Source: Phycisphaerales bacterium (GTDB lineage: Bacteria; Planctomycetota; Phycisphaerae; Phycisphaerales; SM1A02). From it: DNA of 40,957 nucleotides. The notes under the pieces were generated by a model. The model saw nothing but the letters and a program-made list of their open reading frames with translations, did no database searches and was not told the DNA's origin. Location: contig JBILFU010000001.1 in NCBI GenBank assembly GCA_044351405.1, forward strand, positions 1 to 40,957. Reading direction: 5' to 3'. The position numbers were made by a program, and so were the translations under genes. Below, piece by piece: positions 12,905 to 39,365 of this stretch; position 1 is the first letter of the stretch; every line of letters begins with the position of its first letter.

Positions 12905-12932
12905 AGCGGAAATTCGTCCCGGAGGAACGGGA

Positions 12933-12933
<1 letters not shown>
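12905..12933 (-). terminator. Weak hairpin immediately after the uvrB stop (GTCCCG-ttcctc-CGGGAC followed by GAATTTCC on the minus strand)
   Basis: Stem halves at 12916..12921 and 12928..12933. The U-tract is short, so function is uncertain. Confidence 0.25.
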
Positions 12934-15013
<2,080 letters not shown>

Positions 15014-15023
<10 letters not shown>

Positions 15024-15117
15024 CCGGGGTTGATTTTCCCATTTTCCGGGGGCATGCGGCACCCCCGACGCGGCCCCCGCGCCGGAAAATGGGAAAATCA
15101 ACCCCGGGTGACTTTCT
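15014..15117. repeat. 104-bp inverted repeat: 36-bp arms (15014..15049 and 15082..15117, 35/36 complementary) separated by a 32-bp GC-rich spacer
   Basis: Left arm: AGAAAATCACCCGGGGTTGATTTTCCCATTTTCCGG. Right arm: CCGGAAAATGGGAAAATCAACCCCGGGTGACTTTCT. Pairing was checked base by base; the only mismatch is 15019/15112. Each arm carries two GGAAAAT heptads and a CCCGGG-centred sub-palindrome. The left arm contains the uvrB GTG start and the right arm overlaps the permease TAG stop. Confidence 0.95.
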
Positions 15118-22466: not shown

Positions 22467-23792
22467 ATGAAGACGCTCTTCCTCGTGGCCGTGCTTGCCG
22501 TCGCCGCCCCAGCGTTCGCGCAGTCGGGAGCCCCCGACGCACCCGAAGCCCCCGACGCGCCCGGCTCCGCCGATCCCGCCGCGTCCCCCGAGGGGGCCGG
22601 CCCCGGGACGGCCGCCCCGGCCGCGGCCGAGGCTCCCGCGAAGGCGCCGCCGCCCTTCACCCTCGGGCGAGGTTCCGAGGAGCGGAACGCCCCCAGCCCC
22701 TACGCGGTCGACACGCAGTTCGGCCGGCCGCCCAACGTCTACGTGATCCCGATGGAGGGCCTGATGGGCCTCGACATCCACGAGGTGGTCTACGCGAAGA
22801 TCCTGGCCGACCTCAAGGAGAAGAAGCCGGACCTGGTGGTCTTCCGCCTGAAGTCCTCCAACCACGGCGAGAAGGACTCCTACATGGAGGCGGTCGCCAA
22901 CTCGTCCGACGAGGACAAGGTCGACCCGCGCCGCCTGGCGAGCGCCATCACCGACTACCGCGACCTGGCGGCGCGGCTGCAGTCGGAGATCGGCTCCGTG
23001 CCGAGCGTCATGTACGTGGTCGACGCGCGCGGCGTCTCCTGCGTCTATGCGCTCGCGTGGCCCTACATGTTCATGGCGCCCGACTCGAAGATCGCCGGGC
23101 TCGACATCGTGACCGAGCTCGCCGGCGGCAACGACGACGACATCAAGGCGAAGATGCTCAGCGCCTGGACCGGGATCGCCAAGGGCGTCCTGGAGCTGGG
23201 CGGCCACCCGCAGGCGCTCGCGGACGCGCTGGTCCGCCCGGACCGCGTCCTGAGCGCCGACATCGAGGGACGAAGCACCCGGTGGCGCGCCGACACCGAC
23301 GGGTCGTGGATCGTGGTGGACACGTCCATGGAGACCGCGGCGCGCTTCCCGGCGAAGCTGGCGGAGGACACCGGGCTCACCGAGGGCCTCGCGGACGACG
23401 TCCCCGACGTCCTGGGGCAGCTGGGCTACCCGGAGTTCACCATCATCGACAGCGGCGAGAAGATCTTCCGCGACTCCAACGCCGCCTGGCGCCGCCGCTT
23501 CGAGGAGTCCAAGAAGTGGATGGAGGAGTTCCAGGAGGAGATGGCCGACGAGCGCGAGCTCTCCAAGAAGAAGGCCATCATCGAGAAGATGCTCCAGAAC
23601 TTCAAGCAGTCGCCGCAGCTCGCGCGGATGTGGCAGTGGACGCGCGGGATCGACGAGACGCAGCTGAGGACCACGCTGGACCAGATCAACGAGCAGATCC
23701 GCGCCTACCAGAAGTCCAAGAGCTCCACGCGCGGCTCGAAGGGCTCGAAGGGCGGCGGCGGCGGCGGCCCCGGCGCGCCGTTCGGACGCTGA
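22467..23792 (+). CDS. Secreted ClpP/NfeD-like fold protein, paralog 1 (canonical S/TPGG block not evident), with a Lys/Glu-rich helical C-terminal region
   Basis: Signal peptide MKTLFLVAVLAVAAPAFA|Q, then a Pro/Ala-rich linker. VYVIPMEGLMGLDIHEVVYAKILADLKEKKPDLVVFRLKSSNHG resembles the N-terminal strand-helix-strand of NfeD/SppA-type proteases, but SSNHG replaces the xPGG motif. C-terminal tail SKGSKGGGGGGPGAPFGR. Confidence 0.5.
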   Translation: MKTLFLVAVLAVAAPAFAQSGAPDAPEAPDAPGSADPAASPEGAGPGTAAPAAAEAPAKAPPPFTLGRGSEERNAPSPYAVDTQFGRPPNVYVIPMEGLMGLDIHEVVYAKILADLKEKKPDLVVFRLKSSNHGEKDSYMEAVANSSDEDKVDPRRLASAITDYRDLAARLQSEIGSVPSVMYVVDARGVSCVYALAWPYMFMAPDSKIAGLDIVTELAGGNDDDIKAKMLSAWTGIAKGVLELGGHPQALADALVRPDRVLSADIEGRSTRWRADTDGSWIVVDTSMETAARFPAKLAEDTGLTEGLADDVPDVLGQLGYPEFTIIDSGEKIFRDSNAAWRRRFEESKKWMEEFQEEMADERELSKKKAIIEKMLQNFKQSPQLARMWQWTRGIDETQLRTTLDQINEQIRAYQKSKSSTRGSKGSKGGGGGGPGAPFGR

Positions 23793-23823: not shown

Positions 23824-24942
23824 ATGAAGATCCCCACCACCCCGTCCCTCGCGCTCCTCTGCTCCGCGGCCCTCGCGGCGGCCGCGGCGCCGCCCCCGTC
23901 GCCGGCGCAGCCCGCCGCGCCCGGCACCTCCGCGAAGCAGCCCGCGCCCGCCGGCGCCAAGGTCGACTCGCGCGGCTTCACGCTCGACGAGCGCGGCTAC
24001 CGGGTGTCGCCCAAGCCGGGCGTGTTCGTGCTGCCCTGGTCCGGGGGCGTCGGCCAGACGGCCAACGCGAAGGAGATCGCCGACATCGGCGCCGAGGCCG
24101 ACAAGTGGGGCCCGGGCCAGATCATCGTGCTCGACATCGACAGCCCCGGCGGCCGCGTGACGGAGATCTTCAAGATCATCGACGCGATCGCCAAGGTCCG
24201 CGAGCGCCACCGCGTCGTGGTCTGGGTGCGCGAGGCCATCTCCGCCGCGGCCATCACCTCCATGCAGTGCGACGAGATCTACTTCCGCAAGGTCGGCGCG
24301 CTGGGCGCGGCCATGGTGATCAACGGCGCGGACAGCGCGCCGCCGGAGATCGTCGAGCGGTTCCGGACCGACGTGGCGCCCATCGTCGAGCGCAACGGGC
24401 GCCCGCGCGCCGTGTTCGAGGCCATGGTGCTCGCCAACGCGGTGCTCACCTACACCAAGGACCCGGTCACGGGCAAGGTGACCTGGCACGACAAGGTCAC
24501 CGGCCTCCCCGGCGAGGTGGTGCTCTCCGACGAGAAGGAGAACCTCACCTTCAACGCCAGCAACGCGCTCGACTCGGGCTTCAGCAAGGGAACCGCCGAC
24601 AGCGAGAAGGAGCTTGCCGCGCTGCTCGGCCTCCAGGAGTGGTACGAGATCAGCGACGCGGGCCGCAAGGCATCCGCAACGCTGGTCCGGAACTACAAGG
24701 AATGCGAGAAGGACCTGCAGCGCATGCAGCAGGGCATGGGCGTGCAGCGCGGCTCCGAGGTCGAGCAGCTGCGCTACCAGGTGACCGCGCTCGAGAAGGC
24801 GCTCGCCTGGGCCAAGCGCTGCCCGCCGTGCGCCACCAACGTCTTCGGCGGGTTCGACGTCGGCGACGTCGTCGAGCAGCTGGGCAAGCAGCTCAAGGAC
24901 GCCAAGAAGCGCCTGGCCGACGCACGCAAGGCCGGTCAGTGA
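23824..24942 (+). CDS. Secreted ClpP-class (NfeD/SppA S49-like) serine protease homolog, paralog 2
   Basis: AGGAGG lies 6 nt upstream of the ATG. N-terminal signal-like segment LALLCSAALAAAAA. IIVLDIDSPGGRVTEIFKIIDAIAKVRERHRVVVWVREAISAAAITSMQCDEIYF matches the NfeD/SppA pattern (L-D-T/S-P-G-G ... A-x-S-A-G/A). Coiled-coil-like C-terminus. Confidence 0.6.
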   Translation: MKIPTTPSLALLCSAALAAAAAPPPSPAQPAAPGTSAKQPAPAGAKVDSRGFTLDERGYRVSPKPGVFVLPWSGGVGQTANAKEIADIGAEADKWGPGQIIVLDIDSPGGRVTEIFKIIDAIAKVRERHRVVVWVREAISAAAITSMQCDEIYFRKVGALGAAMVINGADSAPPEIVERFRTDVAPIVERNGRPRAVFEAMVLANAVLTYTKDPVTGKVTWHDKVTGLPGEVVLSDEKENLTFNASNALDSGFSKGTADSEKELAALLGLQEWYEISDAGRKASATLVRNYKECEKDLQRMQQGMGVQRGSEVEQLRYQVTALEKALAWAKRCPPCATNVFGGFDVGDVVEQLGKQLKDAKKRLADARKAGQ

Positions 24943-24952
24943 CCGGCGGCGG

Positions 24953-25996
24953 TCAGCCGACCTCGCGGCGCTGGAAGAGCGCGACGGCGATGCCCATCGC
25001 CGCGACGATCGCCAGGACTCCGTACGCGGCAGAGGGCAGCACGTAGGAGAGCGGGATCGCCCGCTTCTGCTGCACCGCGTCGGAGAGCCAGAACACCTGG
25101 AAATTCGGCACCACCGCGTAGGCGGCCTTCAGCGCCGCCAGCTTGGCGTGGGCCGCGTCGAACGCCGTGCCCGGGCTGCCCTCGGCGGCAAGCCGCTCGA
25201 GCGTGGCGGACAGCTCGCGCATGGGCCGCGCGAAGAGCCAGTCGCTCATCAGGCCGATCAGGAAGCTGCCGAAGGTGACGCCCAGCGTCACGACCTGCCC
25301 GAACCGGGTCGACGTGGCGACCGCGATGCTCGCCAGCACCAGCAGCCCCAGCCACATCATGGAGATGGCCACCCAGAGCTGCCCGCGGAACTGCGCCGCC
25401 GGCGCCACCGGGGTCCAGTCCTTGCCGAACACCAGGCACACGAGGTACGCGACCGCCAGGAGCGGCAGCCCGAACCCGAGCACCGATGCCGGGAAGCTCC
25501 ACCCGTAGAAGTAGTTGCACCACGCCGACGCCGCCACCGTCGCGGCGAGCGCCCCGATGCCGAGGGCGAGCACCGGGAAGTGGTAGGGCGTCATCACGGT
25601 CGGCATGGTGCCGTGCATGTCCGTGAGCATGAAGGCGCACGAGAGGAACGCGGTGCAGGCGGTGAGCGCAGCCGCCACGCCGAGGAACTTGCCCCAGACG
25701 AACACCGGGCGGCCCACGGGCTTCGAGACCACGGTGAGCGCCGTGCGCACCTCGATCTCCCTGCTGAGCGCGCTGGTGGCCAGGAACGCCGCGAGCACGG
25801 TGCCGCACACGAACACCGTGGAGAGCCCCAGGTCCACGAACATCCGCTGGTCGTCCATCAGCGTGAAGCCGCTGAAGGGGACGGACAGCACGATCAGCAG
25901 GACGCCCGCCACCAGCACGGCCAGGGTGACGGGCTGGCGCACGCACTCGACGGCGGTGTTGCGGGCGATCGCCCAGAGCTGGGGAAGGAAGTCCAT
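24953..25996 (-). CDS. ABC-2 type transporter permease (NosY/GldF-like), 347 aa
   Basis: From ATG 25996: MDFLPQLWAIARNTAVECVRQPVTLAVLVAG..., then SALSREIEVRTALTVVSKPVGRPVFVWGKFLG, the characteristic E-x3-T-x6-KPV-x-R..GK block of ABC-2 permeases. About 6 hydrophobic segments. The track start (26128) adds an Arg-rich non-protein-like extension. Confidence 0.7.
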   Translation of the reverse strand: MDFLPQLWAIARNTAVECVRQPVTLAVLVAGVLLIVLSVPFSGFTLMDDQRMFVDLGLSTVFVCGTVLAAFLATSALSREIEVRTALTVVSKPVGRPVFVWGKFLGVAAALTACTAFLSCAFMLTDMHGTMPTVMTPYHFPVLALGIGALAATVAASAWCNYFYGWSFPASVLGFGLPLLAVAYLVCLVFGKDWTPVAPAAQFRGQLWVAISMMWLGLLVLASIAVATSTRFGQVVTLGVTFGSFLIGLMSDWLFARPMRELSATLERLAAEGSPGTAFDAAHAKLAALKAAYAVVPNFQVFWLSDAVQQKRAIPLSYVLPSAAYGVLAIVAAMGIAVALFQRREVG

Positions 25997-26049
25997 GGCG
26001 GGCCTCGTCCGCGCCGGGACGGCTCCTCGGCGGCGGGAATACACTACCT

Positions 26050-26064
26050 TGGCACGCCCGTTCC
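26050..26064 (+). promoter_or_regulatory. Sigma-54-like -24/-12 element TGGCACG-cccg-TTCC upstream of the SPFH operon
   Basis: Matches TGGCACG-N4-TTGCW in 14 of 15 specified positions, including the W position. The near-invariant -12 GC reads CC. It is intergenic, correctly oriented, and ~43 nt upstream of the ATG at 26107. It is the only intergenic TGGCAC I saw in the window. Confidence 0.3.
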
Positions 26065-26106
26065 CGTCCGGACCGCAGCGCCCCGATTTCCCGCCGACCG
26101 CCCGCG

Positions 26107-28260
26107 ATGCGCATCGACCAGTACGCATACCAGCAAGCCACCCGCATCGCCGGCCTCGGCCTCGTCCTCCAGGCCGTCGTCACGCTGGCGCTGCTCCTGG
26201 TGGGCCGCCTGCTCGGCAGCACCGCCTTCTCGAGCGCCGTCGCGTTCGGCGTCGCCGGGTGCGCGGGCTGGGCTGTGCTCGTCGTGCTGTTCCACCAGCA
26301 CCGGCTCGCGGCCCTCGAGGCCGCGGAGGCCGACGAGCTCGGGGCATCGCGGGCCGCGTCGACCGTGTTCGACTCCGAGCGCTCCACGGACGGCCGCGTG
26401 GCGGCGCGCCGCCTGCAGCTCATGCAGCGGGTCATGCTCCCCCTGGCCAGCCTGGCGATCGCCGGGTTCCTGGGCTGGACCGGCGTCGCGACGGTCGCGT
26501 ACGTCAACTCGCTGTCGCTGCCCCCCGGCCCGGACGTCCCGGACGTCGCCCGCTTCTCGGTGGGCTCCTCGACGGGCTGGCAGCTCGCCGTGTGCGTCGG
26601 CCTGGCGCTGGCGGCCTTCATCTTCTCGCGCTTCGTCGCGGGCATGGCCCGCCAGCCCGCCTGGCAGAACCTGCGCGGCGGCGCGGGATTCATGGTCGCC
26701 ACGGCCCTGGTCCTCACGGCGATCGCGGGCGGCCTGGTCGCCACGGCGCTCGGCAAGGCCAAGGTGCTCGAGCCGATCGTCCTCGCCGTCGGGTGCGCGC
26801 AGGTCGCCTTCGCCGCGGAGGTGGTCCTCAACCTGGTGCTCGGCCTGTACCGGCCGCGCCGCGCCGGCGACAACCCGCGGGCGGCGTTCGATTCCCGCGT
26901 CCTCGGCCTGGTGGCGGCGCCCGACTCGATCGTCCGCTCCATCAACGAGGCGGTCAACTACCAGTTCGGCTTCGACATCACCTCCAGCTGGGGGTACCAG
27001 CTGCTCCTGCGGAGCACGGCGTGGCTGCTCGCGCTGGGCGCGGGCGCGCTCGTCCTCCTCTCGTGCGTCGTGGTGGTGCCGCCCGGCCAGCAGGCCGTGC
27101 GCCTGCGCGGCGGCGCGATCGTGGGCGAGCCCTGCGAGTCCAGCGTCATGCTCAAGTGGCCGTGGCCGCTCGAGACGGCCCTGGTCGAGGACGTCGGCCG
27201 GATCCGGACGCTCGCGCTCGGCCCGAAGCCGCTGAAGGTGCAGAAGGTCAACGTCTGGGAGGACGACGAGACCCGCGACTCGGACCGCTACCCGTACCTG
27301 GTCGCCGCGCCCGAGGTCCCCGCGGAGCTGAAGGACGGCGCGCCCGGCGCGCGGGATGCCGACTCGCCCGACGCCTCCTCGCGCGAGGTGTCGCAGCGCT
27401 TCGCGCTCGTCGACGCCGACGTGGTGGTCGACTACCGGATCGCCCCCGGCGGGCTCCTCGACTGGCTCGAGCTCTCGGCCGACACGCGCGTCCGGCGCAC
27501 GGGCACCGCGATGCGCGAGCGCCTCCTGCGCGGCATCGCGCTGCGCGAGGTGACGCTGCACATGTCGACGCAGCCGCTCGACTCCGTGCTCGCCCCCCGC
27601 GGCGACTCCCTGGTGCGGACCCTGCGCGAGCGCGTGCAGGCGGCGTTCGACGCGGCCCGGACCGGCGTGGAGGTGGTGGCGCTCCAGGTGCCCGCGCTTC
27701 GCCCGCCGGTGGGGGAGGGCGTCGGCATGTTCGAGGAGGTCTCGATCGACGTGCAGAACGCGCGCAAGCTCCGCGAGGAGGCCGAGCGCACGGCCCGCGC
27801 CACGATGGCCGCCATCGCCGGCAGCCCCGAGCGCGCCGCGGAGATCGTCGCCGCCATCGAGGCCGTCGACCGCGCCGAGCGCGAGCAGGGCCCCGAGGCC
27901 GCCGCGCCGCTGCGCGCCGAGGCGGAGCGGCTGGTCGCCGGCAGCACCGGCGCGGCCGCGAGCGTGATCGGCGCCGCCCGCGCCCGCAGGTGGGCGATCG
28001 TGATGGGCGCCGCGGGCGACTCCGCGGAGGTGCTCGGCCAGGCGCCGTCGTTCCGCGCCGCGCCCGAGCTCTACAAGCAGTTCCGCACCATGCAGGTGCT
28101 CGGGCGCGCGCTCTCCGGCGTGCGCGTCAAGTACGTGCTCGGGCCGGGCGTCCCCGGACGCGCGGAGATCGACATGACCATGAAGCAGGCGGAGTCCGGC
28201 CTGAACCTGGCGGACTACCTCGAGAAGAAGGAGAACCCCGCCGCCGCGGGGGGCAACTGA
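26107..28260 (+). CDS. Polytopic membrane domain fused to a C-terminal SPFH/band-7 (HflK/C-like) domain, 717 aa
   Basis: The first ~330 aa contain about 7 hydrophobic helices. Then VVVVPPGQQAVRLRGGAIVGEPCESSVMLKWPWPLETALVEDVGRIRT (SPFH entry motif) and a long Ala/Glu/Arg-rich helical region (EEAERTARATMAAIAGSPERAAEIVAAIE...) as in HflK/C coiled coils. Confidence 0.65.
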   Translation: MRIDQYAYQQATRIAGLGLVLQAVVTLALLLVGRLLGSTAFSSAVAFGVAGCAGWAVLVVLFHQHRLAALEAAEADELGASRAASTVFDSERSTDGRVAARRLQLMQRVMLPLASLAIAGFLGWTGVATVAYVNSLSLPPGPDVPDVARFSVGSSTGWQLAVCVGLALAAFIFSRFVAGMARQPAWQNLRGGAGFMVATALVLTAIAGGLVATALGKAKVLEPIVLAVGCAQVAFAAEVVLNLVLGLYRPRRAGDNPRAAFDSRVLGLVAAPDSIVRSINEAVNYQFGFDITSSWGYQLLLRSTAWLLALGAGALVLLSCVVVVPPGQQAVRLRGGAIVGEPCESSVMLKWPWPLETALVEDVGRIRTLALGPKPLKVQKVNVWEDDETRDSDRYPYLVAAPEVPAELKDGAPGARDADSPDASSREVSQRFALVDADVVVDYRIAPGGLLDWLELSADTRVRRTGTAMRERLLRGIALREVTLHMSTQPLDSVLAPRGDSLVRTLRERVQAAFDAARTGVEVVALQVPALRPPVGEGVGMFEEVSIDVQNARKLREEAERTARATMAAIAGSPERAAEIVAAIEAVDRAEREQGPEAAAPLRAEAERLVAGSTGAAASVIGAARARRWAIVMGAAGDSAEVLGQAPSFRAAPELYKQFRTMQVLGRALSGVRVKYVLGPGVPGRAEIDMTMKQAESGLNLADYLEKKENPAAAGGN

Positions 28261-28264
28261 AGCC

Positions 28265-29179
28265 ATGAACCGCACCATCGGCATCGTCGTCGGGGCGCTC
28301 ATCGTGGGCGTGCTCGTCCTCTACAACACGACGTACACGGTCAACTTCCACGAGATCGCCATCGTCACGCGCTTCGGCAAGCCCGCGGGCGTGGTGAAGG
28401 ACCCGGGCCTCCACCTGAAGGCCCCTTTCTTCGTGGACCAGGTGACGCGCCTGGACACCCGCCAGCAGCTGGTCGAGAGCCCGCTCGAGACCGTGCTCAC
28501 CCGCGACGGCCAGCAGGTCCTGGTGCAGGCGTACATGACCTGGCGCATCGACGCGGAGCCCGACGCCGCGCTGCGCTTCTTCACCAGCTACTCCTCGCTC
28601 GAGGGCGCCCAGCCCGCGCTGGAGACGCAGCTGCAGGGCGCCCTGCGCGCGATCGGCAGCTACCGGTTCGGCGACCTGGTCGGGCAGGGCAGCAAGCTCG
28701 CCGAGGCGGAGGCGTCGATCCTGGAGGACCTGCGCCGCACGCGCCTGGCGGGCACCGAGCCGGTCTCGGTGGGCATCTCTCAGGTGGTGCTGCCCAGCAA
28801 GACCTCGGTCGCCGTCCTGCGGCGCATGGCCGCCGTGCAGGAGACGCTCGCCAACCTGGAGGAGGCCAAGGGCGCCAGCGCCGCGGAGGCCATCCGCAGC
28901 CAGGCGAAGAGCCAGGCGGACATCATCATGAACTTCGCCGACCAGTGGGCCGCGCGCATCGAGGCCAAGGGAAACGAGGAGGCCACGCGCTACTACCAGG
29001 AGATGAAGGCCGAGTCCGAGCTCGCCATCTTCCTGGCCTGGCTGGACACCCTCAAGGCGTCGCTCGCCGAGAGCACCACGTACATCACCGACACGACCCG
29101 CGCGCCGTTCCACCTGATCGACCTCGACGCGCCGGTCGACGCGAAGGGCATCCCCCAGCCCGGCGCCGCGCGCAAGTGA
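28265..29179 (+). CDS. SPFH/band-7 domain protein, HflC-like
   Basis: N-terminal TM IGIVVGALIVGVLVLY, then TYTVNFHEIAIVTRFGKPAGVVKDPGLHLKAPFFVDQVTRLDTRQQ, which closely follows the HflC pattern. 4-nt gap from the upstream gene. Confidence 0.8.
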   Translation: MNRTIGIVVGALIVGVLVLYNTTYTVNFHEIAIVTRFGKPAGVVKDPGLHLKAPFFVDQVTRLDTRQQLVESPLETVLTRDGQQVLVQAYMTWRIDAEPDAALRFFTSYSSLEGAQPALETQLQGALRAIGSYRFGDLVGQGSKLAEAEASILEDLRRTRLAGTEPVSVGISQVVLPSKTSVAVLRRMAAVQETLANLEEAKGASAAEAIRSQAKSQADIIMNFADQWAARIEAKGNEEATRYYQEMKAESELAIFLAWLDTLKASLAESTTYITDTTRAPFHLIDLDAPVDAKGIPQPGAARK

Positions 29180-29192
29180 CCCCGAATCCGCC

Positions 29193-30605
29193 ATGACAGA
29201 GCCGACCGACAACGACCTGCCCGAGTCCGACGCGCCGCGCCGCGGTGCGAGCGCGCGCTTCGACGTCGGCGCCACGGCCGGCGCGCAGGCGGCCATGCGC
29301 GAGGCGATGGACCCGGCCAACCAGTCGCTCGCCGAGGCGCTGCGCCTGAGCTACCGGGTGCTGCAGCTTGCCATGCTCGCGCTGGTGGCGGTCTTCCTCC
29401 TCAGCGGCTTCCAGCAGGTGCAGGAGGGGCAGACGGGCGTGAAGACGCTGTTCGGCCGCATCGTCGGCGGCCCGGGGGCCGAGCAGGTCTCGCCGGGGCT
29501 GCAGCCCTTCTGGCCGTACCCGGTCGGCGAGGTGGTGCTCCTCCCGCAGAAGGACGCGGTCGAGCTGAACTCCGAGTTCTTCCCGCGCTTCCCGCAGGGC
29601 GCCTCCACCGTCGAGCTGGCCGCGGCCTCCACGACCACCGCGGACCCCATCCGTCCGGGCCGCGACGGTTCGCTCGTCACCGCCGACGGCGACCTCGCGC
29701 ACGTCCGCATCGTGGCCGAGTACCTCGTCGACGACCCGGTCCGCACGCTCGCCGAGTTCCGCCCCGACGCCCTGCGGGAGGTGGTCCGCAAGGCGCTGTG
29801 CCGGTCCATGGTGCAGGTGGCCGCGCAGTTCACGCTGCAGGAGCTCCTCGAGAACCGCGACGCGCCGGCCGACGCGCTGCGCGAGGGTGCGCAGCGGACG
29901 CTCGACGCCATGCGCGCCGGCGTCCGCGTCTCCTCGGTGGTGTTCGCGGAGCGGATGGCGCCGCTCGCCATCCGCAACGCCTTCGGCCGCGTGCAGGAGG
30001 CGCGCGAGGAGGCGAAGCTCGCGCTCGAGAAGGCGCAGCAGGAGGCGAACAAGACCCTCGTCGGCATGGCGGGCGCCGGCTGGGAGGAGCTGCTCGCGCT
30101 GGTCCAGGAGTACGAGGCCGAGCTCTCGCGCAACGACCTCGCGGCCGCGGACGCGGTCATGCAGCGGATCGGCGAGCGGCTGGAGGCGGGCTCCGCCGTC
30201 GGCCGGACCTCGGCGATCATCGCCCGTGCGCAGGCCTACCGAACCACCGTCCGCGCCACGCTGGGCAAGGAGGCCGGCCGCCTGGCGGGCCTGGCCCCCG
30301 CGTTCCGGGAGAACCCGGGGCAGCTCGTGCGCACCCTCTGGCTGGACGCGCTGCGCCAGGTGCTCTCCTCGCCCACCGCGGAGGTCGTCGCGGCCCCCGA
30401 GGAGGGAGGCGACTTCAACCTGGGCCTCGAGAGCTCCAACGACGTCATGCAGGCGCGGCGCAACGCCGAGGTCGAGCGCCGCAAGCGCCGCGCCCAGGAA
30501 CCCGTCGGCGGCGACCAGTACCAGCTCGGCAGCCGCCAGATCATGATCGACGCGCCCGGTCGCCGGCTCGACCGCTCGGCGAGCGGCGGCTTCGGCCGCG
30601 AGTGA
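29193..30605 (+). CDS. SPFH/band-7 domain protein, HflK-like
   Basis: Cytoplasmic N-terminal tail, TM LAMLALVAVFLLSGF, then QQVQEGQTGVKTLFGRIVGG...VSPGLQPFWPYPVGEVVLLP (HflK-type entry), a later SPFH core, and a helical region EAREEAKLALEKAQQEANK. Confidence 0.75.
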   Translation: MTEPTDNDLPESDAPRRGASARFDVGATAGAQAAMREAMDPANQSLAEALRLSYRVLQLAMLALVAVFLLSGFQQVQEGQTGVKTLFGRIVGGPGAEQVSPGLQPFWPYPVGEVVLLPQKDAVELNSEFFPRFPQGASTVELAAASTTTADPIRPGRDGSLVTADGDLAHVRIVAEYLVDDPVRTLAEFRPDALREVVRKALCRSMVQVAAQFTLQELLENRDAPADALREGAQRTLDAMRAGVRVSSVVFAERMAPLAIRNAFGRVQEAREEAKLALEKAQQEANKTLVGMAGAGWEELLALVQEYEAELSRNDLAAADAVMQRIGERLEAGSAVGRTSAIIARAQAYRTTVRATLGKEAGRLAGLAPAFRENPGQLVRTLWLDALRQVLSSPTAEVVAAPEEGGDFNLGLESSNDVMQARRNAEVERRKRRAQEPVGGDQYQLGSRQIMIDAPGRRLDRSASGGFGRE

Positions 30606-30624
30606 TGCGCCCAGGAGGCCCCCG

Positions 30625-31839
30625 ATGACCCGCGAGATGCCGTCGGCTGACGTGGTGGTCGAGGCGAACGGCCTCACCAAGGTCTTCTCCGACTTCTGGA
30701 TGCGCCGCAAGGCGGTCGCGGTGGACGGGATCTCCTTCCGCATCGAGCGCGACGAGATCTTCGGGCTGCTCGGCCCCAACGGGAGCGGCAAGAGCACCAC
30801 CATCAAGATGATCCTGGGGCTTCTGCACCGGACCCGCGGGCTGCTCTCGGTGTTCGGCCGCGAGCCGTCGGACGTCGCGGTCAAGCGGCGCATCGGCTAC
30901 CTGCCCGAGGAGAGCTACCTCTACCGCTTCCTCACGCCTGCGGAGACGCTCGACTTCTACGGCAAGCTCTTCGGCCTCGACCGCGCCGTGCGGCGCCGCC
31001 GCACCGCGGAGCTCCTGGAGATGGTCGGCATGACGCACGCCGCCGACCGGCAGGTGGGCGAGTTCTCCAAGGGCATGGCGCGGCGCCTGGGGATCGCGCA
31101 GGCGCTCATCAACGACCCCGACCTCCTGATCCTCGACGAGCCGACCTCGGGCCTCGACCCGCTCGGGTCGCGGCAGGTGAAGGACCTGATCCTCGACCTC
31201 GGCCGCCGCGGGAAGACCATCCTCCTCTCCAGCCACCAGCTCGACGACGTGCAGGACGTCTGCGACCGCATGGTGATCCTCTACGGCGGCAGGATCCGCA
31301 GCGAGGGCACCGTCGACCAGCTGCTCGAGGACACGGGCCGGACGGTGATCACCGTGCCCCGGCTCGACGCCGCCGCCGAGGCGCGCGTCCGCAGCGCGCT
31401 GCACGACTCCGCGCACGTGGACGTCGAGCGCATCGCCGCCCCGCGCCAGCGCCTCGAGGACCTCTTCCTCCGCATCGTCGAGCAGGCCCGCGCCGACCGC
31501 GCCACGACGAGCGGCGCGCTCGCCGGCGGCCCCACCGCCGCGTTCCTCCTCGGCGAGGACGCCGGGCGCGGGGAGGGCAGCGAACTGATCGCGGCGCTCG
31601 AGTCGGCGCCCGCGCCGGCGCAGGCGGCGTCCGCGGCGGCCGCCCCGGTCCCCGCGGCACCCGCCGCCGACCGGGCGGAGCTCGACCGGCTGGTCGCGCC
31701 CCCGCCGCCGGCCCCGGCGGCCCCCGCCGCCGCGCAGCCGCCCGCGGCCGGCCGTCCCGGTGCAGCGCCCCCGAGGCCCGCGCCCGACGTCGACCGCGGC
31801 GTCATCGACGACCTGCTGGGCGGAGGCGGGCGTCCGTGA
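30625..31839 (+). CDS. ABC-2 type transporter ATP-binding protein with ~100-aa Pro/Ala-rich C-terminal extension
   Basis: AGGAGG upstream. Walker A GPNGSGKSTT, signature FSKGMARRLGIAQAL, Walker B LLILDEPTSGLDP, H-loop LSSHQL. The tail from about nt 31525 reads ...APAPAQAASAAAAPVPAAPAADRAELDRLVAPPPPAPAAPAAAQPPAAGRPGAAPPRPAPD.... Confidence 0.88.
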   Translation: MTREMPSADVVVEANGLTKVFSDFWMRRKAVAVDGISFRIERDEIFGLLGPNGSGKSTTIKMILGLLHRTRGLLSVFGREPSDVAVKRRIGYLPEESYLYRFLTPAETLDFYGKLFGLDRAVRRRRTAELLEMVGMTHAADRQVGEFSKGMARRLGIAQALINDPDLLILDEPTSGLDPLGSRQVKDLILDLGRRGKTILLSSHQLDDVQDVCDRMVILYGGRIRSEGTVDQLLEDTGRTVITVPRLDAAAEARVRSALHDSAHVDVERIAAPRQRLEDLFLRIVEQARADRATTSGALAGGPTAAFLLGEDAGRGEGSELIAALESAPAPAQAASAAAAPVPAAPAADRAELDRLVAPPPPAPAAPAAAQPPAAGRPGAAPPRPAPDVDRGVIDDLLGGGGRP

Positions 31840-33893
31840 CCGAGCTGCTGCGGCGGCTCCACGAACTGCTCCGCGCGCGCCTCTCGACGCGCGCGGCGCG
31901 CATCGCGGCCACGGTGCTCGCCGTCGCCGGGACGGCGGCGGTGGGCGTGCCGCTGGTGCGGACCTCCTCGAGCCTCGCCGCGCAGCGCGTCGCCATCCTC
32001 GACGCCCTGCGGGAGTGCTCCGCCGCGCGCCGCGACCCGGCCGCCGTGCAGCTCATCGAGCGCGGCATGGTCCGCGTCGGCGACCGCGACTACGGCGGCC
32101 CGCTCGTCGTCGGCCGGCCGCTCGACCTCTTCGACGGCCGCGGCGAGATGCCCGCGGAGACCAAGGAGGACCTCTCCTGGCGGATGCTCGCCGACCAGGT
32201 GCCCGCGTGGATGCCCTATGCGCTCGTCAAGAGCCCGCCCGCGGTGGCGGTGCTCCTCGCCGGGGCGCTCGCCGCGGCGCTCGGTGCGGTCTGGGCCGGC
32301 TTCCTGCTCCCGGCGCTCGAGGGCGGCCTGCTGGTTGCCGCGGTCACCGCGTTCTGCTGGCGGATGGGCTGGACCGCGGCCGCGCAGTGGACGGTGAGCG
32401 CCGCGCTCTGCTTCCTGCTGTTCGGCTTCCTGTGGCAGTCGGTGCGGCTGCTGCTCTCCGCGCGCAGCGGCCCGGTGGCCGTCGCGGGCAACACGGCGCT
32501 CGAGGGAATCCGCACGCTGGCGCTCCCGGGCTTCGCGCTGCCGGTGGCGCTGCTCCTGCCGTTCCTGGCGCTGTCGCGCGAGCGCGGCGAGGCGCTGCTG
32601 CAGGCGATTCCCGCGTTCCTCGACTGGGGCCACACGGTGGCCTACGCGTTCGCCGCCATCTTCGTCATCCTGTTCGGCTGCGCCACCAGCGCCTTCGAGG
32701 TGCGCGACCGCCAGGTGTGGTCGGTGGTCACCAAGCCCGTCTCGGGCGGCGGGTGGCTCCTCGGCAAGTGGCTCGGCACGCTCGCGCTCGGCATGACCGT
32801 CGTCGTCGGCGGGACGCTGCTCCTGGGCCTCGGCGCGCGCTACCTGGCGGCGCAGCGCCCCCTCGACGAGCGCGACGCCCGCGACGTGCGCGAGACCGTG
32901 CTGATCGGCCGCGTCGGCACGCTGCCCGAGTACCAGGAGATGGACGCCGCCGCGCTGCGCGAGGCGATCGACGCCGAGATCGAGTCGGACGGCGTCATGC
33001 GGGCCGACATCGCCAACGGGCTCCGCGACGAGGCCGAGATCCGCCGCACGATCGCGGCGCGCCGCAAGCGAGAGTTCCTCGACCAGCAGCGCCGCATCGG
33101 CCCGGGCGACAGCCGCGAGTTCACCTTCCGCGGCCTCCGCGGCGCGGTCGACTCCGGACGGCGCGTCTCGCTGCGCTACCGCTTCCACGGCGGCGGCGAG
33201 GACGAGCACATGCGCTTCCCGGCGATGATCCAGTACGCGTCGGGCAAGGACGCCGGCTCCTGGGAGCTGCGCGAGTGGGTGCCCGGCGAGCCGTACACCG
33301 TCGCGCTCGACCCGAAGTTCGTCGACCCCGACGGCACGCTGCGCATCCGCATCTTCAGCGCCGGCTGGGACGAGGCGTCCAACCAGCCCGTTCCGGGCAC
33401 GATCACCATGTTCATGACCGACGACTCGCTGGAGGTCATGGCGGAGGACTCGACCTTCGCGGGCAACCTGGCCTCCGCCGCGGCGGTCGACCTGTGCAAG
33501 ATCGCGTTCCTGGCCGCGCTCGCCGTGTGCGCGGGCGCGCTCCTCAGCTTCCCGATCGCCGTGCTCCTGGCCTTCGGCGTGTTCGCGCTGGCGACGCTCG
33601 CGCCGTTCCTCTCGACGGCGCTCTCCAACTGGAACCCCGACGAGCGCAGCGGCGTCGTCATCTGGGCCTTCCAGCAGGCGGTGCTCGGCGTCGCGACCGC
33701 GGTCGAGTTCCTCCTGCGCGGATTCTCGGCGCGCAGCCCGAGCGACTCGCTCGCGCAGGGCCGCTCCATCACCTGGGCCGCGCTGTCCCAGGCCGCGCTG
33801 GGCATCGGCTTCCTGTGGACCTTCGGGACCCTGGCCGTCGGCTGGCTGGGCGTTCGGCGCAAGGAGATGGCCGTCTACGGCGGCAACGGCTGA
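31836..33893 (+). CDS. Large ABC-2-like permease / membrane protein (685 aa) with a central extracytoplasmic domain
   Basis: GTGA overlap with the ATPase stop. Multiple N-terminal TM helices. SAFEVRDRQVWSVVTKPVSGGGWLLGKWLG is paralogous to the block in the 24953..25996 permease. A soluble segment of ~200 aa is followed by C-terminal TM helices. Confidence 0.65.
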   Translation: MTELLRRLHELLRARLSTRAARIAATVLAVAGTAAVGVPLVRTSSSLAAQRVAILDALRECSAARRDPAAVQLIERGMVRVGDRDYGGPLVVGRPLDLFDGRGEMPAETKEDLSWRMLADQVPAWMPYALVKSPPAVAVLLAGALAAALGAVWAGFLLPALEGGLLVAAVTAFCWRMGWTAAAQWTVSAALCFLLFGFLWQSVRLLLSARSGPVAVAGNTALEGIRTLALPGFALPVALLLPFLALSRERGEALLQAIPAFLDWGHTVAYAFAAIFVILFGCATSAFEVRDRQVWSVVTKPVSGGGWLLGKWLGTLALGMTVVVGGTLLLGLGARYLAAQRPLDERDARDVRETVLIGRVGTLPEYQEMDAAALREAIDAEIESDGVMRADIANGLRDEAEIRRTIAARRKREFLDQQRRIGPGDSREFTFRGLRGAVDSGRRVSLRYRFHGGGEDEHMRFPAMIQYASGKDAGSWELREWVPGEPYTVALDPKFVDPDGTLRIRIFSAGWDEASNQPVPGTITMFMTDDSLEVMAEDSTFAGNLASAAAVDLCKIAFLAALAVCAGALLSFPIAVLLAFGVFALATLAPFLSTALSNWNPDERSGVVIWAFQQAVLGVATAVEFLLRGFSARSPSDSLAQGRSITWAALSQAALGIGFLWTFGTLAVGWLGVRRKEMAVYGGNG

Positions 33894-33896
33894 CCC

Positions 33897-35861
33897 ATGC
33901 GCGACCGCCCGATCCAGCTCCTGGCGGCCTCGTCCGCGCTCGCCGCCGCGGTCGGCGCGGGCGCGCTGCTGCCCAGGATCGTCTCGGAGAGCGACGCCGC
34001 CAAGCTCCGCTACACGGACGTCTCCGTCGAGGGCGCGCCGCCGATCGTCGCCGTGGGCGCCGCCATCGGCGCGGTGCGCGGCCTGGTGGTCGACTACCTG
34101 TGGATCCGCCTGCAGCAGATGCGCGAGCTGGGCCAGTACTACGACGCCCGGCGGCTGGCGGACCTCATCACCAAGCTGCAGCCGCGCTTCGGCGAGGTGT
34201 GGGCCTTCCACGGCCACAACCTGGCCTACAACCTGTCCGTCCTCATGGGCACGCCGGAGGAGCGCTGGAGGCTCGTGAACGAGGGCATCGACCTCGTCCG
34301 CAACAAGGGCATCCGCTACAACCCCAACGACCTGATCCTCTACAAGGAGCTCGGCTGGTGGTTCGCGCACAAGGTCGACGGCCTGAGCGACGACGCGCAC
34401 CTCTTCTACAAGCGCGAGCTGGCGAAGGAGTGGCACTTCCTTCTCGGGGAGCCGCCGGTCTCCGCCGAGGAGCGCGCCGCCTGGATGCAGCGGATCGCGG
34501 ACGCCCCCGCGACCTACGAGGAGCTGGTGGCGCGCCATCCGGAGGTGGCCGGCCTGGTGGCCGCCATCGAGGCCCGCATGCGGGCCTTCGACCCCAAGTG
34601 GTCGCTCCGCCTCGACCGCGACTTCGCCATGACCGAGGGACGGCGCGAGGCGCTCCGCTCCACGGGCGGATATGCGCGGTTCTTCGGCCTCCAGGAGCAG
34701 TTCCGCCGCCGCGACCCGGTGTACGCGGCCCTCGACGACGTGCTCTCCGACCCGGCAAACCAGAAGGCCCGCGAGGAGCTCGTGGCGTTCGTCCGCAGGC
34801 GCGTGCTGCTCGACGACTACAACATGGACCCCGCCCGCATGGCCGCCTTCACGCGGGACTTCGGTCCCCTCGACTGGCGCCACCCGCAGGCGCACGCCTT
34901 CTACTGGTCCAAGCTCGGCAGCGAGATCGGCGCGGAGCGCTACAACAACGACGAGGACATCTACCGCATCCTCAACGACGACCGCACCACCATCCAGGCC
35001 ATGCAGGCGCTCGCGCACTCCGGGCTGGTCCGCGTCGACCCGTTCTCCAACGACAATCCGTCCCGCCTGTACGACACGCGGTGGATCAAGCCGATCGACC
35101 GCTACTTCCGCGAGCTCTACCAGAAGCACTTCAAGGCGCGCGGCGGCGGCCCGGACACCTTCGTCGACTTCTACGAGAACTTCATGGCGCAGGCGGTGCG
35201 CGAGCTCTACCACGCCGGCGAGATCGAGGAGGCGCAGCGCATCCTGGACGAGCTGGACCGTCTGTGCGGGCGCGGCGGCCTGATCCCGAACAACAAGTAC
35301 GTGGCGCCCGTGGACGTCTTCGTCCGCAACGCCACCTACGGCGAGTACGAGGCGATGCCCGACACGGCGCGGACCGACGTCCTCGCCGTCCTCAGGCGTG
35401 GGTTCCTGGAGTGCTACCTGCTGGGCAAGCGCAAGGTGCTCGACGACGCGCTGGCCTACGCGCGCGACCTCACCGAGTACTTCAAGACGAACCGCTACAC
35501 CGACTTCCGCACCAAGATGGGCGACGCGCGGCTGGCCGACCTGCTGGGCTCGCTCGAGCGCAGCACGGAGGACACGCTGGTCGGCATCATGCAGGATCCC
35601 TCGCTTCCGCTCGTCGACCGGCTCACCGTTTACTCCCGGCTCCCGGAGGACCAGCGCTGCATGGTCTACGACCCCTCGCTGAAGCGCATCACGCAGGACA
35701 TCGCGGCGAGCCCGCTCGGCGCGGCGGGCGCCACCGCCGCGAACCTGTTCCCGCCCCCTCCCGGCATCGACGAGTACCGGGCCCGCAGGGCGGCGGAGGC
35801 GGAGCGGCGCCGGGAGCGGCAGGAGAGCTTCAAGGAAGGATCCGGCGACCGCAAGCGCTGA
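33897..35861 (+). CDS. Conserved-looking hypothetical protein, N-terminal membrane anchor + all-helical (TPR-like) body, 654 aa; no family recognised
   Basis: 3-nt gap from the upstream gene. Protein-like composition rich in W/Y/F/N/K (VVDYLWIRLQQMRELGQYYDARRLADLITKLQPRFGEVWAFHGHNLAYNLSV..., YWSKLGSEIGAERYNNDEDIYRILNDD...). Basic Arg/Glu C-terminal tail. Confidence 0.7.
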   Translation: MRDRPIQLLAASSALAAAVGAGALLPRIVSESDAAKLRYTDVSVEGAPPIVAVGAAIGAVRGLVVDYLWIRLQQMRELGQYYDARRLADLITKLQPRFGEVWAFHGHNLAYNLSVLMGTPEERWRLVNEGIDLVRNKGIRYNPNDLILYKELGWWFAHKVDGLSDDAHLFYKRELAKEWHFLLGEPPVSAEERAAWMQRIADAPATYEELVARHPEVAGLVAAIEARMRAFDPKWSLRLDRDFAMTEGRREALRSTGGYARFFGLQEQFRRRDPVYAALDDVLSDPANQKAREELVAFVRRRVLLDDYNMDPARMAAFTRDFGPLDWRHPQAHAFYWSKLGSEIGAERYNNDEDIYRILNDDRTTIQAMQALAHSGLVRVDPFSNDNPSRLYDTRWIKPIDRYFRELYQKHFKARGGGPDTFVDFYENFMAQAVRELYHAGEIEEAQRILDELDRLCGRGGLIPNNKYVAPVDVFVRNATYGEYEAMPDTARTDVLAVLRRGFLECYLLGKRKVLDDALAYARDLTEYFKTNRYTDFRTKMGDARLADLLGSLERSTEDTLVGIMQDPSLPLVDRLTVYSRLPEDQRCMVYDPSLKRITQDIAASPLGAAGATAANLFPPPPGIDEYRARRAAEAERRRERQESFKEGSGDRKR

Positions 35862-35883: not shown

Positions 35884-36540
35884 ATGCCCGTCCCGCCCGC
35901 CATCCTCGCCGTCGGCCGCAACTACGCCGACCATGCCGCCGAGCTCGGCGCCGCCGCGCCCGAGCGCATCATGCTCTTCCTGAAGAACCCGGCCTGCGCT
36001 TGCGGCGACGGCGACCCGATCGTCATCCCGCCCATCTGCGACGACCACGGCCCGCAGGTGGACTTCGAGGGCGAGCTCGCCGTGGTGATCGGCCGGACCT
36101 GCCGCGACGTCCCGGAGCGCGAGGCGCTCGGCGCGGTTCGCGGCTACGCGGCGGCCAACGACGTGACGGCGCGCTGGTGGCAGAAGGAGGGAAGCGGCGG
36201 GCAGTTCTGCCGCGGTAAGAGCTTCGACACGTTCTGCCCGCTCGGGGCGGTCGCGCCCGCCGCCGGGATCCCCGACCCGCAGGCGCTGCGCATCGTGACC
36301 ACGCTCAACGGGAAGGTGATGCAGGACGCGCCGACGTCGCTCATGCTCCACCCGGTGGCGCGCATCATCGCCGACCTCTCGCGCGGGATGACGCTCCTCG
36401 AGGGGACCGTCATCCTCACCGGCACGCCGTCGGGCGTGGGCGCGGGCCGCAGCCCGAAGGTGTTCCTGCAGCCGGGCGACGTGGTCGAGGTGTCGATCGA
36501 GGGCGTCGGCTCGGTGCGGAACCCGGTGCGCCATGCCTGA
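35884..36540 (+). CDS. Fumarylacetoacetate hydrolase (FAH) family protein
   Basis: [58 protein letters not shown]. These are typical FAH-family blocks. Confidence 0.8.
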
Positions 36541-38530: not shown

Positions 38531-39365
38531 GGCGCGCGACCTGCGTGTCCCGCGCCCATCCGGACCGGCCGTCGGGAAGTTCGAGCCGCACCCAGCCCGG
38601 CCGTTCCTCCGTCACCGTGCACTCCACGCCAGCGCCGAGCGCCTCGACGAACGCCGGCTCGAAGCCCTCGCCGTTGCCCTTGCGCAGCACCGTGCTCGGA
38701 TCGAGCAGCACGGCCGGGGGCCTCGCGCCGCGGAGGAGGGCATCGACGATCGCCGTGCCGCCGAGCAGCGCCGCGCCCGCGAGCGCAGCCCACGCCGAGG
38801 CGCGCACCACCATGTCCGCCGGGCGCGGGAGCCCCGTCCCCGCGAGCGCGCGGACCGAGAGGAGCAGCCAGAGCGCGGCCCAGCAGGCGAGCCCGATCGA
38901 CGCCCGCACGTGGCCCGGCACCACGTGCCACCAGCTGGCCACCGTGTCGACGAGGAGCGTGGTGCCGCCGCGGCCGACCGCATCCGGCACCTGCGACCGT
39001 GCCGCCGCCAGGTTGTGGGCGAGGTCCGCGTTCCCGGGCAGGAACCGCTCGGCCCGCCGGTAGCAGGCGATGGCGTTGCCCAGGTCGCCCGCCTCCAGGT
39101 ACGCGTTGCCCAGGTTGAACTCGAGCGGCCCGTTCTCGGCGCCGGCGCCTCGCACGCGCTCCCACTCGCGCGCGGCGTCGCGGAAGGCCGCAAGGCTCGC
39201 CGCCGGGTCCGTGCGGCGCAGCCCGACGGCGCGGTCGTGGGCCTCCTGTGCGCGCTCGAGCTGCGCCAGGGCCAGGTCGGCGTCGGAAGCGCGGGCGGCG
39301 GGCGCCCAGGAAGCCGCGCAGGCCAGGAGCGCCGCGAGCGCAGTCGGACGGAAGGCGCCGGTCAT
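38526..39365 (-). CDS. batE: BatE-like protein: signal peptide + TPR repeats + TM segments + C-terminal SH3b domain
   Basis: From ATG 39365 (ATGA overlap with the batD stop): MTGAFRPTALAALLACAASWAPAARA.... TPR-like FNLGNAYLEAGDLGNAIACYRRAERFLPGNADLAHNL. Hydrophobic helices follow. C-terminal VLRKGNGEGFEPAFVEALGAGVECTVTEERPGWVRLELPDGRSGWARDTQV (SH3b pattern). Confidence 0.75.
   Translation of the reverse strand: MTGAFRPTALAALLACAASWAPAARASDADLALAQLERAQEAHDRAVGLRRTDPAASLAAFRDAAREWERVRGAGAENGPLEFNLGNAYLEAGDLGNAIACYRRAERFLPGNADLAHNLAAARSQVPDAVGRGGTTLLVDTVASWWHVVPGHVRASIGLACWAALWLLLSVRALAGTGLPRPADMVVRASAWAALAGAALLGGTAIVDALLRGARPPAVLLDPSTVLRKGNGEGFEPAFVEALGAGVECTVTEERPGWVRLELPDGRSGWARDTQVARP

Follow-up and report, generated by a model that had tools for sequence, protein, structure and literature searches.

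The window examined here, a stretch of 40,957 nucleotides (nt) from a Phycisphaerales bacterium (NCBI GenBank assembly GCA_044351405.1, contig JBILFU010000001.1, positions 1 to 40,957 of the forward strand), carries seven adjacent genes that encode three SPFH-domain proteins, an ATPase and two permeases of the ABC-2 transporter type, and a large helical protein. This seven-gene set is inseparable and vertically inherited in the related Phycisphaerae genomes examined, and we are confident that it constitutes a real, conserved functional module. Because the cluster is intact in every one of these genomes, the module very likely represents one uncharacterized machine of the cell envelope. Its parts are of known kinds (SPFH, ABC-2, and helical repeat), and we found no description of their combination. 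Six of the genes, referred to below as G1–G6, lie on the plus strand at 26107–35861; the seventh, U1, encodes the upstream minus-strand permease, and two NfeD/ClpP-like genes further upstream are designated U2 and U3. The members of the module are as follows.

24953–25996, minus strand: U1, ABC-2 family permease of approximately 347 amino acids (aa), divergently transcribed
26107–28260, plus strand: G1, 717 aa, multi-pass domain fused to an SPFH domain
28265–29179, plus strand: G2, 304 aa, HflC-like SPFH protein
29193–30605, plus strand: G3, 470 aa, HflK-like SPFH protein
30625–31839, plus strand: G4, 404 aa, ABC-2-type ATPase
31836–33893, plus strand: G5, 685 aa, large ABC-2 permease with a GTG start
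33897–35861, plus strand: G6, 654 aa, membrane-anchored protein modeled as a TPR-like solenoid

The window has a GC content of approximately 73%, and long spurious open reading frames (ORFs) are common in it; genes were called by applying a GC3 frame plot (GC content at third codon positions) to the window ORFs. Exactly six frames, those of G1–G6, were backed by GC3 values of 0.93–1.00 together with GC1 > GC2, and they lie precisely where a preliminary description of this DNA had placed six tightly packed plus-strand genes, with junctions of 4, 13, 19, −4, and 3 nt (the negative value being a 4-nt overlap, GTGA, between G4 and G5). For the second permease, the conserved ...GAAGTNCAT in relatives fixes the start at 25996 and not at 26128, so that U1 does not overlap G1. 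Domain, hydropathy, and profile results also agree with the gene content originally given, namely an SPFH trio, an ATPase, a large-insert permease, and a helical protein; hidden Markov model searches placed G2 and G3 in Band_7 and G4 in ABC_tran, whereas G1 stayed below threshold and G5 and G6 found no family model.

The evidence that carries the module is comparative. Among the GTDB species representatives scanned, 315 species carry a relative of G6, and the best 80 loci were analyzed. Wherever a close locus offered at least 7.9 kb of upstream flank, G1–G6 were collinear on one strand (53/53), and with at least 9.3 kb of such flank U1 adjoined G1 on the opposite strand (48/48). Within this close clade, an FAA-family hydrolase gene next to the module (68 of 69 loci) and RnpA are likewise syntenic, and collinearity among close relatives, taken alone, could thus be mere relatedness. 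The decisive set consists of eight distant loci with G6 homologs, whose proteins are 21–55% identical to their window counterparts and whose contigs have 50–68% GC; two of them belong to complete genomes, Poriferisphaera sp. WC338 (CP194516.1, region 3561599–3583746) and strain ZRK34 (CP050848.1, region 2576211–2598424). In all eight, the block U1-G1-G2-G3-G4-G5-G6 is whole, with the same relative strands and with short gaps or overlaps, and comprises a multi-pass SPFH protein of 690–718 aa, SPFH proteins of 300–338 and 429–493 aa, an ABC ATPase of 395–481 aa, and a large permease of 573–671 aa. None of U2, U3, the FAA hydrolase, and RnpA is found near the module in these eight loci, and their flanks differ except for two shared neighbors, a P-type ATPase upstream (L082 and L088 in our locus numbering) and an aldose epimerase downstream (L081 and L088).

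Since the whole block persists in distant genomes with changed flanks, the conserved unit is the seven-gene set of U1 and G1–G6. The six genes of the preliminary description are therefore real but do not make up the entire unit, and the second ABC-2 permease, seen there as an upstream neighbor, belongs to its core. The 4-nt overlap of G4 with G5 and the 3-nt spacing of G5 and G6 are seen again in most close and several distant loci, and the module genes are never apart in 61 loci that range from 91% down to approximately 30% protein identity. The co-localization on which the preliminary description had staked its proposal is accordingly maintained in related genomes while the flanks have turned over, and an arrangement that is collinear in 53/53 close and 8/8 distant loci is far more than chance would produce.

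The same observations bear on whether the genes form a mobile or accessory island, such as an anti-phage defense system or a horizontally acquired resistance pump. The only match in this direction is that of the ABC ATPase domain of G4, and of no other module protein, to a PADLOC model (mad3 at 4.7e-27), and it is weak. Against it, the GC and GC3 of the module are in line with those of its flanks, the neighbors are housekeeping genes (among them those for RnpA, the CCA-adding enzyme, ribonucleotide reductase, UvrA, and UvrD), the block comes without an integrase, a repeat, or a neighboring tRNA, and its conservation within the lineage is vertical. We give this explanation next to no probability; with housekeeping genes making up the remainder of the window, the module sits in the core chromosome and not in an island. 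A defense system was also considered as a candidate in its own right and rejected, as PADLOC run on nine proteins returned generic ABC-ATPase matches on G4 only.

Of the three SPFH proteins, G2 matches Band_7 in Pfam at 2.9e-25, has HflC as its best match among solved structures (3.8e-17, with stomatin at 2.5e-4), carries one N-terminal transmembrane (TM) segment by hydropathy, and, with a median identity of 68%, shows the strongest conservation of all block genes within the close clade. G3 matches Band_7 at 8.8e-18, finds HflK (2.9e-7) and then erlin-1 (1.3e-4) among solved structures, and consists of a 55-aa N-terminal tail, one TM segment, the SPFH domain, and a long coiled coil. In NCBIfam, G2 scores 90 bits against TIGR01932 (hflC; equivalog cut-off 134.4) and G3 scores 63.3 bits against TIGR01933 (hflK; equivalog cut-off 159.4); by that standard, both are HflK/C-like proteins and not orthologs. 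G1 combines an N-terminal part of approximately seven hydrophobic segments (residues 14–324, by hydropathy) with a C-terminal part that holds an HflK-like SPFH domain and a coiled-coil/C-terminal region. Its own Band_7 match stays under the threshold (E = 3.3e-3; 18 bits, cut-off 23.6), and the domain was found in 15 of 15 G1 orthologs scanned (best 5.5e-10). G1 further matches TIGR01933 at 2e-10 (40.5 bits, below the cut-off of 159.4), its C-terminal half is 26% identical to G3 (E = 2e-6), and its profile matches the C-terminal region of HflK (7vhp_E at 2.7e-4, and the HflK construct 7vhq_E at 1.1e-4). The multi-pass N-terminal domain has no relative in Pfam or the PDB, and an hhalign comparison of the G1 and G5 families found the extra TM domains of the two to be unrelated. 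The most conserved stretch of G1, residues 250–305, is a loop predicted to be cytoplasmic. Judged by sequence comparison, G1, G2, and G3 are HflK/HflC-type SPFH paralogs, HflK/C-like rather than equivalogs. From the single N-terminal TM segment of G2 and G3 and the odd number of segments that precede the SPFH domain of G1, hydropathy predicts that all three SPFH domains are periplasmic if the N-termini are cytoplasmic.

It could be argued from this kinship that two functions share one operon, with G1–G3 modulating an FtsH encoded elsewhere and with U1 and G4–G6 forming an unrelated, co-regulated ABC-2 exporter. HflC and HflK are indeed the closest solved structures to G2 and G3, the scanned ORFs of the window yielded no ftsH gene, so that an FtsH partner elsewhere is possible, and all characterized ABC-2 exporters work without SPFH proteins. 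However, the seven genes stay together in all 61 loci while their flanks turn over, translational coupling is frequent at their junctions, the scores of G2 and G3 are far short of the equivalog cut-offs for HflC and HflK, and a third SPFH paralog with a unique multi-pass domain is unlike any known FtsH–HflKC system. With these points weighed, we consider the two-function explanation unlikely, although it retains an appreciable share of the probability.

The transporter genes are assigned with differing ease. G4 matches ABC_tran in Pfam at 3.3e-31 over a nucleotide-binding domain (NBD) of approximately 300 aa, the DrrA subfamily of NCBIfam at 7.4e-65 (219 bits, below the cut-off of 312), and GldA at 7.7e-55 (186.5 bits, below the equivalog cut-off of 402.6), and its best solved structures are ABCA4/ABCA1 (1e-68) and NosF (1.7e-46). 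On these matches, G4 is an ABC-2-type ATPase of the DrrA/GldA/NodI/NosF/ABCA group. The NBD is followed by a Pro/Ala-rich tail of approximately 100 aa (residues ~295–404; 31500–31836 in the window), which is probably disordered and carries a TSGAxxGGxTAxFL motif plus an acidic [VL][IL][DE][DS]L[LIV] motif in two or three copies, ending in DVDRGVIDDLLGG; the final copy adjoins the C-terminus. These motifs are kept in the close loci and in seven of eight distant orthologs, with linkers of greatly varying length, and they persist in genomes where G4 is only ~50% identical.

G5 of the window has no match in Pfam or NCBIfam; of its orthologs, 10 of 16 match ABC2_membrane_2 (best 2.9e-9). U1 matches the same family at 2.2e-5 (24.3 bits, below the Pfam cut-off of 27.2), and U1 and G5 orthologs in distant loci carry precomputed ABC2_membrane_2/3/5 matches. 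The two permeases are 30% identical over 107 aa (E = 1e-5), across the ABC-2 'E-R...T..KP' loop that follows TM2. The AlphaFold2 model of G5 is good (pLDDT 86.6, pTM 0.82) and shows three parts: an N-terminal extension in which a ~90-aa loop accompanies approximately four TM helices; an ABC-2-like core; and an insert of approximately 200 aa (residues ~345–540) composed of helices and a beta-sandwich, which helix counting on the model predicts to be periplasmic. Foldseek found no significant global match to this model; the beta-sandwich weakly resembles jelly rolls of the carbohydrate-binding module (CBM) type (8wab, probability 1.0, TM-score 0.43, E = 1.4e-2). Matches to RND and SecDF proteins were rejected as low-probability artefacts of the large membrane-plus-periplasm shape. 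A PDB sequence-profile search with G5 gave nothing meaningful, and a homolog search with a word prefilter returned 43 matches, all close relatives. G5 is also the fastest-evolving gene of the block (median identity of 35% in the close clade), and no module protein matches ABC_transp_aux, the GldG-type family. Taken together, G4, G5, and U1 appear to form an ABC-2 (type V-like) set of one ATPase and two different permeases, in which U1 is probably the heterodimer partner of G5.

G6, which the preliminary description had regarded as an orphan, turns out to belong to a large family, although it has no match in Pfam (including its TPR models), NCBIfam, PADLOC, or PDB sequences. A word-indexed search gave 654 matches, the best 120 of which are 53–91% identical and ~651 aa long, and HMMER, run exhaustively against 1.84 billion cluster representatives, recovered 2044 clusters (50% identity) at E <= 1e-3 and, at E <= 1e-30, 671, including many full-length members at 30–38% identity. 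The named matches among those listed are all Phycisphaerales, Phycisphaeraceae, or labeled Planctomycetota (one complete genome bears the label 'Planctomycetales bacterium ZRK34'); by sequence, G6 is thus a member of a large unannotated family centered on the Phycisphaerae. Conservation across Planctomycetota and other phyla, for which the preliminary description had suggested looking, is not shown by these named relatives. As a separate observation, several module-bearing records of metagenome-assembled genomes in GTDB (L010, L015, L035, and others) bear apparently wrong taxon labels, namely 'uncultured Chitinophaga sp.', 'uncultured Bifidobacterium sp.', and 'Singulisphaera sp. GP187'.

The AlphaFold2 model of G6 (pLDDT 81.9, pTM 0.75) is all-alpha, with two N-terminal helices followed by a solenoid. 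An N-terminal TM helix is followed by a second helix of marginal hydrophobicity, and the C-terminal helix of the protein is basic. The top Foldseek matches of the model are all generic TPR proteins (probability 0.9, but E >= 1e-3 and TM-scores of 0.12–0.17), and G6 is accordingly described here as TPR-like on the strength of its predicted fold. More than 130 positions, many of them W, H, N, D, or R, are invariant across 39 sequences. On the Kyte-Doolittle scale with a 19-residue window, the second hydrophobic segment scores 1.5–1.8 in the close clade and 0.8–1.45 in most distant orthologs scanned.

How might these proteins work together? HflK/HflC, prohibitins, stomatin, and flotillins form SPFH rings or cages. 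Three of these assemblies are known to surround membrane proteins, as HflK/C forms a periplasm-facing cage around FtsH (PMC12048511), prohibitin cages the m-AAA protease (PMC13376388), and stomatin encapsulates AQP1 and UT-B (PMC12407830), and by analogy with them G1–G3 would form a cage with a (G4)2-G5-U1 complex as its client. In the model that we favor, G1, G2, and G3 would come together on the cytoplasmic membrane as a hetero-oligomeric SPFH ring or cage that faces the periplasm and is anchored by the multi-pass domain of G1, and the ABC-2 complex would be its dedicated client, with the alpha/beta-sandwich domain of G5 projecting into the enclosed space. The energy of ATP hydrolysis by G4 would go either into exporting an envelope component, lipid or lipid-linked, or into mechanical work in the periplasm, and the SPFH assembly would limit which membrane components reach the ABC-2 machine. 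G6 would serve as an adaptor that, if its repeats are cytoplasmic, probably docks onto the short motifs of the G4 tail and the conserved cytoplasmic loop of G1; this reading requires that G6 form a two-helix hairpin and have its repeats in the cytoplasm. Short motifs on flexible tails are the kind of ligand that TPR grooves bind.

The several parts of this proposal do not stand equally firm. That the SPFH proteins and the ABC-2 complex are physically one machine, which is the coupling model as a whole and is argued by analogy, strikes us as a serious possibility that falls somewhat short of an even chance. Its most specific form, a three-paralog HflK/C-type cage built around an ABC-2 motor instead of FtsH, with a TPR-like adaptor that reads motifs on the ATPase tail, is put forward tentatively, as possible but on the doubtful side. 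A lipid or glycolipid substrate is a doubtful guess, to which two weak hints point (toward a lipid or a lipid-linked glycan), namely the ABCA-like NBD of G4 and the CBM-like sandwich of G5. NosFY, LolCDE, and FtsEX act as mechanotransducers, and a role of this kind is equally open. The preliminary description had imagined a membrane-microdomain scaffold that organizes an export or quality-control machine, and our model, being of the same general type, shares its inferential character.

Several considerations weigh against the favored model. Contacts among the module proteins are drawn from analogy with established SPFH biology, and since G2 and G3 fall below the HflC and HflK cut-offs, cage formation is assumed by homology. 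Co-transcription of G1–G6 is read from their spacing and from nothing else, and a shared operon can also mean co-regulation of independent functions. With no significant structural relative for the G5 insert, the substrate class is a guess. Finally, because its second hydrophobic segment is marginal in distant orthologs, the repeat domain of G6 could be periplasmic, which would remove the proposed interaction with the G4 tail.

A periplasmic G6 would fit a polymer-guiding role instead, and thereby a different account in which the module exports a glycan, a glycolipid, or another lipid-linked envelope polymer: (G4)2-G5-U1 would act as the pump, the beta-sandwich of G5 and a periplasmic G6 would guide the polymer, and the SPFH proteins would be accessory stabilizers. 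ABC-2 is the classic fold of O-antigen, capsule, and teichoic-acid exporters, and TPR scaffolds (AlgK, BcsC, and PelB) guide the polymer in polysaccharide secretion. In keeping with such a role, the NBD of G4 is closest to ABCA lipid exporters, the insert of G5 bears a weak likeness to carbohydrate-binding jelly rolls and to BcsB domains, the conserved positions of G6 are rich in W/N/H/D/R, and its marginal second segment in distant orthologs is compatible with periplasmic repeats. Yet the window and the eight distant loci contain no linked glycosyltransferase, polymerase, or outer-membrane component other than a single secretin (in L086), none of the Foldseek matches reaches significance (E >= 1e-2), and the invariable attachment of three SPFH genes would be left unexplained. 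We regard polymer export as distinctly unlikely.

A further set of features surrounds the module, some of which suggest yet another interpretation.

~22467–23792, plus strand: U3, ~441 aa, distant paralog of U2, with a signal peptide
23824–24942, plus strand: U2, 372 aa, NfeD1b_N match of 57.6 bits (cut-off 40), ClpP/SppA-like, with a signal peptide
25997–26106: divergent U1/G1 intergenic region, 110 bp
35884–36540, plus strand: FAA-family hydrolase, 22 nt after G6

U3 is 20% identical to U2 (E = 8e-7); the DSPGG motif kept in U2 is replaced by SSNHG in U3, which may therefore, judging from this substitution, be inactive. Both proteins lack the TM segments and the C-terminal OB-fold domain of classical NfeD. 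U2 was detected at the same position upstream of the module in the 27 close-clade loci where it could be matched. The preliminary description was correct in placing two NfeD/ClpP-like genes immediately upstream, but given their absence near all eight distant modules they are neighbors in the close clade only and lie outside the conserved unit.

These genes are central to the suggestion that the module is an ATP-driven quality-control machine for periplasmic or membrane proteins, analogous to FtsH–HflKC, in which the ABC-2 complex, as a mechanotransducer, would extract or unfold clients inside the cage and the secreted U2 and U3 proteases would degrade them. The suggestion draws on the two upstream genes (U2 with its signal peptide and NfeD1b_N/ClpP-like domain, and U3 as its distant paralog), on the recurrence of U2 in the close clade, on the established pairing of NfeD proteases with stomatins (PMC4208085, PMC2636767), and on the membership of the permeases in the ABC2_membrane_2 group, which includes the mechanotransducer NosY. 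Nevertheless, none of the eight distant modules has an NfeD-like gene in its flanks, U2 and U3 are without the TM segments and OB domain, DSPGG is lost in U3, and proteolysis by either protein is a supposition. In our estimate, this explanation is improbable.

Compared with characterized systems, the module resembles HflK/HflC-FtsH of E. coli (SPFH3; 7vhp, 9cz1; PMC12048511) in its adjacent HflC-like and HflK-like genes, in the single N-terminal TM segment, predicted periplasmic SPFH domain, and coiled coils of its G2/G3-type proteins, and in the HflK-type C-terminal region recognizable in G1; the concept of an SPFH cage around an ATP-driven membrane machine would also be shared. The two differ in that HflK/HflC comprises two paralogs and the module three, one of them fused to a unique multi-pass domain, and in that the partner of HflK/HflC is the AAA+ protease FtsH, whereas the ATPase linked to the module belongs to an ABC-2 transporter. 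The module proteins also stay below the equivalog cut-offs and have no hfq-hflX context. With the stomatin/NfeD (STOPP) pairs (PMC2636767, PMC4208085), the module shares, in the window and the close clade, SPFH genes near a ClpP-like NfeD gene, and stomatin cages have been reported to encapsulate the specific transporters AQP1 and UT-B (PMC12407830). In contrast to these pairs, the NfeD-like proteins of the window are secreted, soluble, without OB-fold or TM segments, and unlinked in distant genomes, and the SPFH proteins are of the HflK/C type (stomatin at E ~3e-4 versus HflC at 4e-17). For an operon with three SPFH genes, the closest precedent is the likewise uncharacterized PaFlo5-PaFlo6-PaFlo7 set of Pseudomonas aeruginosa (PMC13086221), a likeness of operon make-up; no ABC transporter or TPR partner is reported for PaFlo5-7, whose distribution is patchy and resembles horizontal gene transfer, whereas the module is present in every related genome examined.

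On the transporter side, the module resembles the ABC-2 type V systems (NosDFY, GldAFG, DrrAB, and ABCA) in its DrrA/NosF/ABCA-type ATPase and ABC2_membrane_2-like permeases, and the large extracytoplasmic domain of G5 is comparable to the corresponding domains of ABCA proteins, a part that is supplied in the Gld and Nos systems by a separate GldG or NosD. Unlike those systems, the module has an ATPase that falls below all NCBIfam equivalog cut-offs (GldA, 186 vs 402; DrrA, 219 vs 312) and bears a long, motif-carrying tail, no GldG (ABC_transp_aux) or NosD domain as in GldAFG/NosDFY, and a G5 insert that apparently follows the third core helix instead of lying between TM1 and TM2. We know of no NosY/GldF-type ABC-2 system that is operon-linked to SPFH proteins. 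The combination is not a system model in Pfam, NCBIfam, or PADLOC, and an SPFH-ABC module is not described in a 2009 survey of prokaryotic SPFH operons (PMC2636767). Our searches of the literature on SPFH proteins with ABC transporters, on Planctomycetes, and on gene neighborhoods found no description of it either, which agrees with the earlier impression that no joint function had been described for these proteins.

To our knowledge, HflK/C-FtsH is the only well-defined pair of an SPFH cage and its client in bacteria, and most other bacterial SPFH proteins have no known client. What SPFH cages do for the proteins that they enclose is an open question on which the module bears, as it ties a candidate client (the ABC-2 transporter) and a candidate adaptor to SPFH genes in every related genome examined. 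If the most specific form of the favored model is true, this would be the first bacterial SPFH cage whose client is a transporter specified by the same operon, and it would offer a genetically defined system in which to ask how such cages affect their clients. The module also assigns a context to three large unannotated families, those of the TPR-like G6, the big-insert permease G5, and the multi-pass SPFH fusion G1, and points to a probable envelope function specific to the Phycisphaerae, in which the biology of the cell envelope is poorly understood.

Regulatory sequences gave few further clues. In a nine-locus alignment of the otherwise diverged U1/G1 spacer, the sole invariant block is ATAC..TAC..T, found in the window as GGGAATACACTACCTTG at 26035–26051; this conserved sequence is a candidate promoter −10 or operator element, and a scan of the spacer for the sigma-70 consensus found nothing. 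The promoter/terminator scan was uninformative, giving a single promoter-like site, which lies outside the operon, and three terminator-like ones, a number no greater than in shuffled sequence. Across the whole window, the sole Rfam match is tRNA-Ser, and no riboswitch in or before the operon hints at a substrate. Downstream, the FAA hydrolase is probably co-transcribed with G6 in this genome, as it lies on the same strand only 22 nt away; its absence from the distant loci places it outside the module.

The other genes of the window include those for a class II ribonucleotide reductase, a dCTP deaminase, UvrD, UvrA, an acyltransferase, a MacB-type ABC pair, the CCA-adding enzyme, RnpA, tRNA-Ser, and a BatD-like protein. 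The ABC pair (15116–18446, minus strand) is an unrelated MacB/FtsX-type system with an ATPase and an 858-aa permease that contains a MacB periplasmic core domain. At 6938–9688 on the plus strand, a 916-aa protein of unusual architecture combines a type I phosphodiesterase/nucleotide pyrophosphatase domain, TPR repeats, and a C-terminal sulfotransferase domain, and at 12754–15042 on the minus strand a 762-aa ORF has no Pfam match; the antisense GC3 pattern there suggests a real minus-strand gene. The BatD-like protein is encoded near the window end (39362–40945, minus strand). In strain ZRK34, the module is followed (L082:13456–20710) by genes for VWA, TPR, MotA/ExbB, three ExbD, and large TPR proteins; the occurrence of a BatD-like gene near the end of our window and of this VWA/ExbD cluster in ZRK34 may be a coincidence.

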